DNA of 25,475 nt from Oligoflexales bacterium (GTDB taxonomy: Bacteria; Bdellovibrionota_B; Oligoflexia; Oligoflexales; Bog-1112), in NCBI GenBank assembly GCA_045105515.1, contig JBGCDR010000143.1, positions 1 through 25,475 on the forward strand, read 5' to 3'. Position numbers and translations under genes: made by a program. Below, one piece after another: positions 2,670 to 5,057 of the stretch (position 1 is the stretch's first letter; each line of letters begins with the position of its first letter). A model generated the notes under the pieces. The model did not search any database. It was given only the letters and a program-made list of their open reading frames with translations, and was not told the DNA's origin.

Positions 2670-5057
2670 TTAGAAGTAGCTAGAAAAAATTCCCAGCGTC
2701 ACAAAAGAGTTGTGCCAGTAGCTTAAAGACAAATCCTTCTTAAAGCCAGTAATATCTTCTGACTCCTCAAAGTCTGACTCGGAGGCAAGAGTATCCTTAA
2801 AAAATTTCCCTTCACCCCCCCATTCAAGGTTAACTCCCAAATGCTTTGATAGAAAATACTGGACCCCAACAGATTCCCTTACTCCCAAACCAAGTCCGTT
2901 AGCATAGAGCATAAAAGCTACAGAAAAATCCATTTCGTTTTTCCAGTATAAAGATAGGTCAGGAAGCTGGTCCCATTCATGATGTAGGCGGGTCATAAAG
3001 CCAAGGTCAGTGCCAGCAGTACTGAAATTTTCAACTAGGTCAATTTCTTCATTTCTGAGCTCAATCTTCCCACTACCATAACGGATACCAAAGCCAACGC
3101 TCAGTGAATCATAGTGAGGAATCTCAATATTGAAATCAAATGACCTGCCCTCCTTCAATTTGAAAAGTTCTTCCTTACTATTAAAACTATTGACATCATA
3201 AGGATTCACTTTTGAGTAGTTGAAGTACAGGAGTGGCACCGCAAAGTGAGAATTTAAATTACCAGATAAAGCTAGTTGTCTGTGATCCTTCCCAGAATTT
3301 TCCAATGAATAATCCTGGCACACAAGTTCAAAGCTATTCATGTCACCCTCTATGGTATCTTTGCTATGACCCACTTGCTGATCAGGAGTTTGATCCTTTT
3401 TAAAATAGTGAGGATCTAACTGAGCTATTCCATTAGTCCAAAGGTTTGGATTAACTTCTCTAAATCTCTTGCGCCAGTGATCTCGGCGTACCAAGCCAGC
3501 TTCTGTAGGCAAGCCAAAACGGCTGTAATTTACCACAGACTCCCAAAGGAAGACATCAACCTTTCGTCTATTTTTAGGCAAAAGTTTATGTGAGCCATAC
3601 CTTACACTTCTTCCAATGATTTGTTTCTCAAGAGCAACATTCTTCACAGGTTCCAAAATATGTAGCTGTTCAACCCCCACCAAAGAGATCCCTTCGGTAA
3701 TTTCAGGATGAATCAAAAGTATACCTTTTTCACCATCATTAAAATTCCTTAGAATGCGAGAAACTTCGTCCACACTTGCCTGTGCTTCAAGAATATCATA
3801 GGCATAACTGCGGCTATTTAAAAACTTGGCAAACTCTAAAATTCCATTGTAATAGTAGGAAGAATAGACGGCGGTCTTCCCTTTATTTCTGCGAATAAGT
3901 TTTTCTATTTCAATGAATTTATTGGATATGTCATCATCTTCCTCTGTATGGAAGCTAAGGTTTCCTATCTCCCTTCCCGCTCCAGGAAGAGCAAGTATAT
4001 CCTGCTGAATCTTAGAACTATTCACATGTAGCATCGCATCGGAATATTGATTTGGATAATCTTTTAGCATGATATTTAGATCATTTTTACTTAAAACTCC
4101 GTCCACAAAGTCCATAAAGTATTCAACCTGTGCCTTAGTATAAGAAACCCGCTTATTGTGGATTACCTCTTCAGGATAGTCTTTTGTTTCAAGCTCTTTA
4201 GCGCGATAATATGAGATATAAGAACTGCTAAAATCTGAAAATTCCGCAGCATTAAATTTTCTAAAGCTAACTTTATTAATAGGAAAATTTTCATTTACTA
4301 AATTTAAGCTAGAAGACCCAGCCATAGCCATTATTGGAAGAATCCAAGGACTACCACTTACGACTACCAAAGATGCGCCTACAAATACTCCAAATAGGGG
4401 CAAGGTTGTTGTCATCAGCTTACTTTCACTAAAATACCCACGAAAAAGGGAAGCTGCAGTATCAATGCTCATAAACTGATTTTTAAATTCATCAGGGTGA
4501 AAAGGAAAGACTTCCTTACCTACAGTCAAGTTGCCAATATACGCAACATCTGCAGCATCAGTAAACACAGGTGTTCCAGTTAAGAGCAGCATTTTTTTTG
4601 CTTTAAATAGATTCCAATAAATATCTAAAAACCTTGCATCTGGAGTGTGGCGAATCTGCTCCACCAGTTTCTGAATTTCGTCAACAACCACAAGATTTTG
4701 TGAAAAATCAATCTCCTTAATTCGCTCTAGATCTTTATGGTTGTTGTAGCTGAAAATCTCTACTTCATTGGTATGTACCCCCACCTTGCCTGACTCATTA
4801 ATCCAATGAGCTTTAAGTACTTCGGGAACCAAAATAACTGTTTTAAGGGGCTGTTGCTTAGCATAAAACAAAGCAGTAATAGTTTTGCCTGCTCCCAGTG
4901 CATGATACAGGATTAATCCATGCAAATTAGGGTTGCAATTTAGGTAGTTCAGAACCTTTTGCTGATGAGGCAATAAGGTGAGCTGTGCTGCAAAGGAAAA
5001 GCTTGTAAGCAAAGCAGAAACAACAGCGATAATTCGTATCATTTTTTTGAACTTCAT
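2670..5057 (-). CDS. Signal-peptide-bearing SF2 helicase/ATPase (NCLDV D6/D11-like, SNF2-related) fused to C-terminal beta-barrel-like domain
   Basis: Signal peptide ending SFA|A. Q-motif LLPHQ, motif I GLILYHALGAGKT, motif II VVVDEIQ, motif III LLLTGTP, motif V EGISL, motif VI QIIGRSVR. Aa about 600-795 have alternating amphipathic strands (LSVGFGIRY, VGVQYF, LGVNLEWG) and terminal VTLGIFSSYF. Confidence 0.8.
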   Translation of the reverse strand: MKFKKMIRIIAVVSALLTSFSFAAQLTLLPHQQKVLNYLNCNPNLHGLILYHALGAGKTITALFYAKQQPLKTVILVPEVLKAHWINESGKVGVHTNEVEIFSYNNHKDLERIKEIDFSQNLVVVDEIQKLVEQIRHTPDARFLDIYWNLFKAKKMLLLTGTPVFTDAADVAYIGNLTVGKEVFPFHPDEFKNQFMSIDTAASLFRGYFSESKLMTTTLPLFGVFVGASLVVVSGSPWILPIMAMAGSSSLNLVNENFPINKVSFRKFNAAEFSDFSSSYISYYRAKELETKDYPEEVIHNKRVSYTKAQVEYFMDFVDGVLSKNDLNIMLKDYPNQYSDAMLHVNSSKIQQDILALPGAGREIGNLSFHTEEDDDISNKFIEIEKLIRRNKGKTAVYSSYYYNGILEFAKFLNSRSYAYDILEAQASVDEVSRILRNFNDGEKGILLIHPEITEGISLVGVEQLHILEPVKNVALEKQIIGRSVRYGSHKLLPKNRRKVDVFLWESVVNYSRFGLPTEAGLVRRDHWRKRFREVNPNLWTNGIAQLDPHYFKKDQTPDQQVGHSKDTIEGDMNSFELVCQDYSLENSGKDHRQLALSGNLNSHFAVPLLYFNYSKVNPYDVNSFNSKEELFKLKEGRSFDFNIEIPHYDSLSVGFGIRYGSGKIELRNEEIDLVENFSTAGTDLGFMTRLHHEWDQLPDLSLYWKNEMDFSVAFMLYANGLGLGVRESVGVQYFLSKHLGVNLEWGGEGKFFKDTLASESDFEESEDITGFKKDLSLSYWHNSFVTLGIFSSYF

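Follow-up and report, generated by a model that had tools for sequence, protein, structure and literature searches.

The stretch of DNA analysed here, called the window, comprises 25,475 nucleotides (positions 1 to 25,475 of contig JBGCDR010000143.1, assembly GCA_045105515.1) from an Oligoflexales bacterium. Its minus strand carries, at positions 2670..5057, an open reading frame (ORF) encoding a helicase of 795 amino acids plus stop (P0001, the window translation), and all parts of this protein described below lie on that strand. The polypeptide is predicted, from its sequence and from structural models, to combine a Sec-type signal peptide, a D6/D11-type ATPase of superfamily 2 (SF2), a membrane-like hairpin and an eight-stranded OmpA/OmpW-type barrel. 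An earlier examination of the letters, referred to as the sequence-only reading, had noted the helicase core and a signal peptide; the hairpin and the barrel are parts that it overlooked. We take D11 to be the vaccinia protein NPH-I, and D6 to be the small subunit of the early transcription factor VETF.

The SF2/SNF2-like ATPase core of the D6/D11 type spans positions 3288..4976 (aa 28-590) and was recognised using Pfam, a PDB sequence search, an AlphaFold2 (AF2) model and Foldseek. Motif I (Walker A), GLILYHALGAGKT, was located at 4881..4919 (aa 47-59), motif II, VDEIQ, at 4671..4685 (aa 125-129), and a motif V-VI block, EGISL...HILEP...QIIGRSVRYGSH..LP...RKVDVF, at 3549..3695 (aa 455-503), where it aligns to residues 455-497 of NPH-I. 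Further conserved strings were LLLTGTP (aa 157-163), ISYY...DYP (aa 281-295), VYSSYYYNG (aa 397-405) and TPDQ...SLE (aa 557-586), the last forming the end (3300..3389) of a C-terminal helical module at about aa 510-590. All motif strings listed by the sequence-only reading are present in the 795-residue translation, and the range it gave, 3297-4976, corresponds to aa 28-587; the spacing it described was right except for the gap between the N of HILEP..N and QIIG, which is five residues (VALEK) and not four. It had also reported DEIQ instead of DExH in motif II, and this was borne out. Across the bacterial clade to which the protein belongs, motif II is DExH in 71 of 81 members and DExQ in 8, the latter mainly in a subclade with a fused barrel. 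Furthermore, G55, G57, K58, D126, E127, Q479, R483 and R486 were invariant in an alignment of 58 sequences, as were E455, G456, H466, E469 and V500 of the motif V-VI region, and because the catalytic residues have been retained, the protein is predicted to be an active NTPase maintained by selection.

Pfam analysis of the protein returned three families only at E up to 1: Helicase_C (40.1 bits, cut-off 23.5), SNF2-rel_dom (30.2 bits, cut-off 24.9) and ResIII, which was just under its cut-off. With both lobes above the Pfam cut-offs and motifs I, II and VI conserved, the protein is a member of the SF2/SNF2-like ATPase superfamily. NPHI_C, the C-terminal domain of NPH-I, gave no match in the same search at E up to 1. 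An NCBIfam match to DpdE reached 39.5 bits against a cut-off of 500 and was set aside as generic SF2 similarity.

The sequence-only reading had proposed that the core is nearer to the D6/D11-type helicases of giant viruses, or nucleocytoplasmic large DNA viruses (NCLDVs), than to ordinary bacterial SNF2 proteins, and profile scores, the BFVD ranking, a PDB sequence search and trees supported this. The closest relatives outside the bacterial family belong to a signal-less, hairpin-bearing helicase subfamily for which we found no published name and which we call X1. When scored with the family profile, which contained two X1 sequences, X1 proteins reached a median of 325 bits (n=100), helicases linked to phage RNA polymerase (RNAP) 159 bits (n=7) and classical NCLDV D6/D11-type helicases 140 bits (n=79); among five SNF2 proteins of the bacterium's own genome, two scored 66 and 49 bits and three had no match. 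The PDB sequence search gave vaccinia NPH-I as the best match (6rfl_Y, E 2.4e-8), followed by Rad54 (0.0066). The AF2 model, built on the 58-sequence alignment, had a predicted local distance difference test score (pLDDT) of 87.5 and a predicted template modelling score (pTM) of 0.79. Structural comparison with BFVD showed that 12 of the top 18 matches were named NCLDV proteins (D6R-type helicase, early transcription factor 70-kDa subunit, NTPase I, DEAD/SNF2-like helicase) and 6 were unnamed, with phage SNF2 proteins from rank 19. The clusters listed by ESM Atlas were all viral, and with a best score of 0.80, under the meaningful level, they serve as a lead only. Foldseek against solved structures also placed NPH-I first (5.5e-18), closely followed by CSB (1.7e-17) and Mot1 (2.0e-17), the SNF2 enzymes lying between 1e-15 and 1e-18.

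These relationships were examined with two trees. The FastTree phylogeny of 274 cores and 555 columns, rooted on four SNF2 proteins of the same genome, contained a hairpin clade of 184 sequences (0.928) made up of a bacterial signal-peptide clade of 82 (0.981) and the signal-less X1 clade of 102 (0.95), next to which 86 classical NCLDV and phage helicases grouped together (0.905). IQ-TREE analysis (LG+C20 PMSF, quick search, 67 rows, 549 columns) united the bacterial clade and X1 with a Shimodaira-Hasegawa-like approximate likelihood-ratio test (SH-aLRT) value of 100 on a branch of 0.9. The corresponding values were 83 for the bacterial clade, 93 for X1, 97 for the classical NCLDV clade, 99 for the phage clade and 98 for all of these against the SNF2 outgroup. 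The bacterial and X1 clades are reciprocally monophyletic sisters, neither nested in the other. In the IQ-TREE analysis the family does not fall inside the classical NCLDV D6/D11 clade and forms a third clade together with X1; the branching order of the hairpin, classical NCLDV and phage clades was not settled by this tree. It was also found that the hairpin and the C-terminal module (aa 510-590) are common to X1 and the bacterial clade only, and that profile positions past about 555 are matched by these two clades alone. The window protein is a member of the hairpin clade by its inter-lobe hairpin, its TPD...S(I/L)E module and its position in both trees.

The N-terminus of the protein (4986..5057, aa 1-24) is signal-peptide-like, with the basic n-region KFKK, a hydrophobic h-region and the sequence SFA↓AQ. 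An h-region ahead of the core was detected in 71 of the 81 bacterial-clade members that have the Walker A motif, compared to 1 of 98 X1 proteins, a pattern consistent with the suggestion of the sequence-only reading that a signal peptide was acquired after gene exchange. A lipobox-like cysteine was present in 16 of these 71. Between RecA lobes 1 and 2 lies an uncharged hydrophobic helical hairpin of 42 residues (4293..4418, aa 214-255), which holds zero charged residues and was modelled by AF2 as helices 213-234 and 239-257. A 19-mer with a Kyte-Doolittle value of at least 1.6 was found in 76 of 81 proteins of the bacterial clade and 71 of 98 of X1, compared to 2 of 85 classical D6/D11 or phage relatives, and the median hydrophobicity of the hairpin was 1.99. 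Pfam and NCBIfam searches of the whole protein returned nothing matching the hairpin or the barrel.

The C-terminal domain (2673..3260, aa 600-795), which ends in ...SSYF, is predicted to be an eight-stranded outer-membrane beta-barrel. When modelled alone it formed eight long strands (pLDDT 89.2, pTM 0.84). VIA-align gave Z scores of 16.9 with the OprF barrel, 16.5 with OmpA, 16.5 with NspA and 15.1 with OmpW, at a root mean square deviation of 2.1-2.9 over 129-165 residues, and Foldseek retrieved OmpW and OprG at 1.1e-5. The domain model and the sequence end thus agree with an eight-stranded OmpA/OmpW-like barrel closing on a C-terminal aromatic residue; no curated outer-membrane-protein family of Pfam or NCBIfam was matched at E up to 1. 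The barrel is homologous to separate neighbour genes in other genomes, whose stand-alone products bear signal peptides of their own and have aromatic or hydrophobic C-termini (...KTTY(F/L)). We ran a profile of the C-terminal domain on all ORFs of 27 distinct bacterial loci (32 fetched, 5 duplicates). The barrel was fused to the helicase in 5 loci, encoded by a divergent gene immediately upstream in 12, and by the next gene downstream in 5, making it fused or adjacent in 22 of 27. It was not found in the other 5 of the 27 loci, each of which runs into the end of its contig on one or both sides. Because of this fusion-or-neighbour pattern across loci, there is strong evidence, at the level of gene arrangement, that motor and barrel would work together. 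Complex prediction for one split pair, helicase P0033 (residues 24-595) and its neighbour barrel at locus L090 (residues 23-214), each supplied with an alignment, gave a score of 0.00 where the mark was 0.32, which is evidence neither way. At one locus (L098:4929-7456) a barrel-fused helicase is broken into two overlapping ORFs (4929-5891 and 5711-7456); the sequence may be frameshifted or misassembled, or the copy may be decaying.

We wanted to know whether X1 is viral. Gene context was read on two IMG/VR ORFs and on eight long loci out of 69 obtained in a metagenome scan with one X1 subclade. The two IMG/VR ORFs, P0102 and P0103, lie on contigs of which one is named as a giant-virus bin, and the record of the other includes an NCLDV major capsid gene (E 6.5e-61). 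The eight long loci were densely packed and AT-rich (GC 0.21-0.35), and Pfam analysis of 86 of their 103 ORFs revealed typical NCLDV neighbours. The X1 gene of locus L193 stands beside genes for PCNA, P11 minor capsid protein, RNase III, an mRNA capping enzyme with N7-methyltransferase and TFIIS, and that of L197 beside a family-B DNA polymerase and PCNA; the helicases at these loci were confirmed as X1-type. Two X1 subclades, each represented by one narrow pattern, were absent from scans of prokaryote genomes. One X1 subclade was 89% identical to a protein annotated in a green-algal nuclear genome, that of Coccomyxa viridis, where the contigs measure 2 to 3.6 Mb; this copy may be either viral DNA that became endogenised or a gene of the alga itself. 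The first IMG/VR scan yielded 77 kept loci, 4 of which grouped with X1 in FastTree, and IMG/VR scans with X1 alignments added a single further X1-type ORF (L173), the remaining loci being of the classical D6/D11 type. The records of L014 and L013 contained no NCLDV capsid gene; both are phage-like, and RNAP genes lie beside the L013 helicase. Capsid matches in the L174 and L130 records belong to contigs with classical-type helicases, not X1. Collectively, the sequence context points to X1 as an undescribed, putatively membrane-anchored helicase subfamily of giant viruses.

Some features of the viral proteins were recorded along the way. On giant-virus-like contigs the hairpin helicase often occurs as two adjacent paralogues, divergent or convergent (L186:9899-14287, L192:9821-14068, L188:788-4323), and P0105 (1452 aa) contains two complete hairpin-helicase copies in a single ORF. 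Many viral members finish in a Cys-rich tail.

The helicase gene of the window is a resident bacterial gene rather than a binned viral fragment. This follows from the bacterial housekeeping and regulatory genes around it (an NtrC-type regulator, DprA, an MrfA-like helicase, fmt, purN and glpK), from its GC content of 0.385 compared to 0.383 for the genome, and from its presence as a single copy in the 6.29-Mb assembly. Recent acquisition was ruled out because its GC is that of the genome, and the matching composition marks the gene as an old resident. A word-indexed search yielded 73 relatives, of which eight, with 790-809 aa, span the whole protein and 49, with 499-686 aa, are without the barrel; the few named ones are proteins of Oligoflexales, Bdellovibrionia or Zetaproteobacteria metagenome-assembled genomes. 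Scanning 185,579 species-representative prokaryote genomes with a pattern yielded 25 loci, all in uncultured genomes. Their labels include Bdellovibrionia, Oligoflexia, Pseudobdellovibrionaceae, Deltaproteobacteria, Myxococcales/Myxococcota, Rickettsiales/Rickettsiaceae, Gammaproteobacteria, Zetaproteobacteria and 'uncultured bacterium', with Phaeodactylibacter as the label of the weakest locus (E 4e-4, 81 residues). When 1.84 billion representative proteins were searched with a profile, there were 24,577 matches at E ≤1e-3 and 3,254 at ≤1e-30. Among the matches listed, the first 35 or so were of the signal-peptide type, and later ones were mainly signal-less, most of them with the hairpin.

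The life style of the carriers was approached through the Tlc importers (PF03219). At E ≤1e-50, Tlc was found in all 16 genomes of the window's taxonomic family, in none of 25 genomes that represent 15 sister families within the same order, and in none of 14 control genomes. The window's own genome has six full-length Tlc genes (contigs C74, C181, C166, C40, C393 and C190 of G000). The helicase was present in 9 of the 16 family genomes compared to 0 of the 25 sister-family genomes. Ten other carriers, with genomes of 1.0-3.4 Mb, were also searched, and Tlc was detected in 6 at E ≤1e-30, one of these 6 being an assembly already counted. These gene contents fit carriers that would take nucleotides from a host or prey cell. 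The protist host that the sequence-only reading had invoked as the shared meeting place is made no more than plausible by these importers.

On the best reading of these data, to which we give a probability of about one half, the protein is an envelope-anchored, periplasm-facing translocase that is fuelled by host ATP and stems from an exchange between virus and bacterium. Sec would export the protein, and the barrel would insert into the outer membrane with the motor tethered at its periplasmic side, since both ends of OmpA-type eight-stranded barrels are periplasmic. The hairpin would probably remain in the inner membrane as a stop-transfer and re-insertion pair, in which case the protein, or the two-gene pair, would bridge the envelope. 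The motor would hydrolyse ATP in the periplasm, where ATP may be available because Tlc carriers of the inner membrane import it from host or prey through this compartment. Hydrolysis could then drive translocation along, or remodelling of, nucleic acid at the envelope. The motor itself would have been exchanged between giant viruses and bacteria exploiting the same eukaryotic cells, and the bacterial lineage would afterwards have gained the signal peptide and recruited the barrel.

Several findings weigh against this reading. The signal peptides were called by eye and with a hydropathy heuristic only. We know of no precedent for an inner-membrane hairpin and an outer-membrane barrel in one polypeptide, nor of a periplasmic nucleic-acid substrate. 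Solved structures alone do not separate NPH-I from cellular SNF2 enzymes, and the SNF2 outgroup of the trees consists of four proteins, all from the same genome. When the bacterial clade was forced together with this outgroup, which is equivalent to a root on the bacterial stem, the tree was 23.3 log-likelihood units worse and was not rejected by the approximately unbiased test (p-AU 0.147). Tlc was not found in 4 of the 10 other carriers, and 7 of the 16 Tlc-bearing family genomes had no helicase that we could find, so that Tlc and helicase share a lineage and are not strictly coupled. Moreover, these genomes are related and are not independent samples, which makes the pattern a co-occurrence in a lineage and not a statistical association.

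The sequence-only reading had also inferred gene exchange with large DNA viruses, and the sister clade X1 on NCLDV contigs, joined to the bacterial clade with an SH-aLRT of 100, supports the exchange without establishing its direction. We lean somewhat towards transfer from virus to bacterium, because viruses make up the wider radiation, bacterial members are scattered patchily over several phylum labels, and signal peptide and barrel look like additions. The reverse order of events, which we consider possible but doubtful, holds that the hairpin motor is bacterial in origin and that giant viruses took it from bacteria living in the same host and then lost its signal peptide and barrel. It would accord with the reciprocal monophyly of the two hairpin clades (SH-aLRT 83 and 93), with the root on the bacterial stem that the p-AU of 0.147 leaves standing, and with a gene composition that matches the genome, as expected of an old resident. 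Three observations fit it poorly, however. The hairpin clade sits in a radiation that is otherwise virus-encoded, namely the NCLDV and phage D6/D11-type helicases; the bacterial members amount to 25 loci in 185,579 species genomes, uncultured and under several phylum labels; and among the 3,254 proteins at E ≤1e-30, those listed past the bacterial clade are signal-less.

A second alternative, the chief competitor of the envelope reading as to how the protein works, yet unlikely and rated a little below the reverse transfer, accepts the same export and places the site of action elsewhere: the protein would be an effector that works in the cytosol of the host or prey on host DNA, RNA or nucleoprotein. 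It could be released in outer-membrane vesicles, or when envelopes fuse or cells lyse, and the fusion of a vesicle would turn its periplasmic face into a cytosolic one. In that position the hairpin could fix the motor to a membrane of the host, as it may do in the viral sister clade, in which the hairpin is shared and both lobes must face the cytosol. Export signals combined with an outer-membrane tether would suit such delivery, as would carriers that look host- or prey-dependent, a host cytosol in which ATP and substrates are plentiful, and a signal-peptide-bearing pentatricopeptide repeat (PPR) protein encoded 19 bp downstream. However, a hairpin with a median hydrophobicity of 1.99 should be retained by the inner membrane while Sec exports the protein, neither a secretion system nor a vesicle signal was linked to the gene, and the PPR neighbour is not conserved, being present in 2 of 16 family genomes, the other of which is without the helicase.

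It is very improbable that the protein is an ordinary cytoplasmic helicase in which the N-terminal stretch and the hairpin serve as inner-membrane anchors and the C-terminal domain is no outer-membrane protein. The cytoplasm does hold ATP and nucleic acids, and the viral sisters are evidently membrane-anchored on the cytosolic side. On the other hand, four basic residues before the h-region favour an N-in orientation with the rest outside, 16 variants are lipobox-like, the C-terminal domain is a confidently predicted eight-stranded OmpA/OprF/NspA/OmpW-type barrel with an aromatic C-terminus, and the stand-alone barrel homologues have their own signal peptides. Hardly tenable at all is the view that the protein has no special viral affinity and is a divergent bacterial SNF2/ResIII member with convergent or generic SF2 motifs, for although Pfam sees only generic SNF2-rel_dom, Helicase_C and ResIII and Foldseek on PDB structures is near-equal for NPH-I and cellular SNF2 remodellers, it runs against the profile order (hairpin clade, then NCLDV/phage D6/D11-type, then SNF2 of the own genome), the BFVD ranking and PDB sequence search, the union with the viral hairpin clade at SH-aLRT 100 on a branch of 0.9, the hairpin and C-terminal module that the viral clade alone shares, and the failure of one narrow pattern for each of two X1 subclades to find them in prokaryote genomes.

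We then compared the envelope-anchored translocase envisaged here with known systems. Vaccinia NPH-I and the 70-kDa subunit of VETF have, like this protein, an SNF2-like two-lobe core with the HILEP..N...Q..GR..R..SH..LP..R.V signature. They are without its signal peptide, hairpin, barrel and aa 510-590 module; conversely, the window protein lacks an NPHI_C match and an adjoining viral RNAP and branches outside the classical NCLDV clade. X1 proteins (P0102 and P0103 from giant-virus contigs; L177, L179, L192 and L197 from metagenome contigs) have the hairpin in the same position and a TPD...SIE module, with 25-32% identity over the full core. They differ in having no signal peptide (1 of 98) and no barrel, many Cys-rich tails, and AT-rich NCLDV-type or green-algal contigs as their setting.

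The HILEP/GRxxR..SH..LP signature, which the sequence-only reading had regarded as characteristic of NCLDV helicases, is present in the protein but is not exclusive to NCLDVs, as it also occurs in helicases beside phage RNAP genes. These phage RNAP-linked helicases (L013, L020, L029) carry the same signature in the form LEPHWN...GR..R.KSHEHLPPEERNV and are as close by profile as the classical NCLDV proteins; they are shorter (460-560 aa) and without hairpin, signal peptide and C-terminal module. On the large phage-like IMG/VR contigs concerned (L013:80-7377, L020:309-5797, L029:58-7374) the D6/D11-type helicase, here of 460-500 aa, lies directly downstream of multisubunit RNAP beta/beta' genes, as identified with PHROG. 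This adjacency recalls the association of NPH-I with RNA polymerase in poxviruses.

The N-terminal domains of OmpA and OprF, as well as NspA and OmpW, share the fold of aa 600-795 and the C-terminal aromatic residue, and the signal peptides of the stand-alone homologues add to the likeness. The order of domains is reversed relative to OmpA, in which the barrel precedes the periplasmic domain; in the present protein a 570-residue ATPase comes first and the barrel follows. Type Va autotransporters have the same order of signal peptide, large passenger and C-terminal barrel. The protein does not belong to that class, since its barrel has 8 strands in about 195 residues and no linker pore, compared to 12 strands in about 280 residues, and in place of a beta-helical passenger it has a globular ATPase bearing a hydrophobic hairpin.

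A literature search at the level of titles and abstracts found no published account of a D6/D11 or SNF2 helicase that is exported or anchored in a membrane. Textbooks place helicases and SNF2-type translocases in the cytoplasm or nucleus, since they need ATP and nucleic acid, and this family retains every catalytic residue yet has export signals and a predicted outer-membrane barrel partner. The most far-reaching version of the proposal, which is clearly less probable than the reading we prefer and which we put forward tentatively as one joint claim, is that the protein would be the first extracytoplasmic SF2 motor, a periplasmic ATP-driven nucleic-acid translocase tethered to the inner membrane through its hairpin and to the outer membrane through its barrel, and taken from giant viruses infecting the same eukaryote, with a viral counterpart anchored to the virion or factory membrane. 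Such a periplasmic motor would be possible only because ATP from host or prey floods the periplasm. If this were true, these bacteria would handle nucleic acid in their envelope, for instance by taking it up from host or prey, and the periplasm of energy-parasitic bacteria would support ATP-dependent machines. The family also stands as a clear-cut instance of a gene shared by giant viruses and bacteria exploiting eukaryotic cells, and it points to a membrane-anchored helicase subfamily of giant viruses with a possible role, for instance, at the virion inner membrane.

The remaining observations concern the surroundings of the helicase gene. The PPR gene (1316-2650, minus strand) begins 19 bp downstream of it on the same strand and encodes a 444-aa product with a signal-peptide-like N-terminus and pentatricopeptide repeats (PF13812, 2e-9). 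PPR proteins are RNA binders typical of eukaryotes and eukaryotic organelles. As a functional partner of the helicase this neighbour was rejected, because just 2 of 16 family genomes have it and the second lacks the helicase. A scan for promoters and terminators gave 12 promoter-like sites where 12.0 were expected and was uninformative. The window stretch is contained in three DNA sequencing runs of one study, possibly the source of the assembly, and no RNA run was listed. In a lipoprotein-like ORF (629-1237, plus strand) of 202 aa, an N/D/E-rich region is accompanied by a tandem (EADAKAK)n repeat, and the C-terminal part bears a CxxCH haem-binding motif; its match to Cytochrome_CBB3 is weak (7e-4) and below the cut-off. 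Lastly, at 8933-12243 on the plus strand, a helicase gene of the DEAD/Helicase_C type, whose product has an MrfA Zn-binding domain, precedes an RNase_H-superfamily exonuclease-like gene, an arrangement that looks like an MrfA/MrfB-type repair pair.

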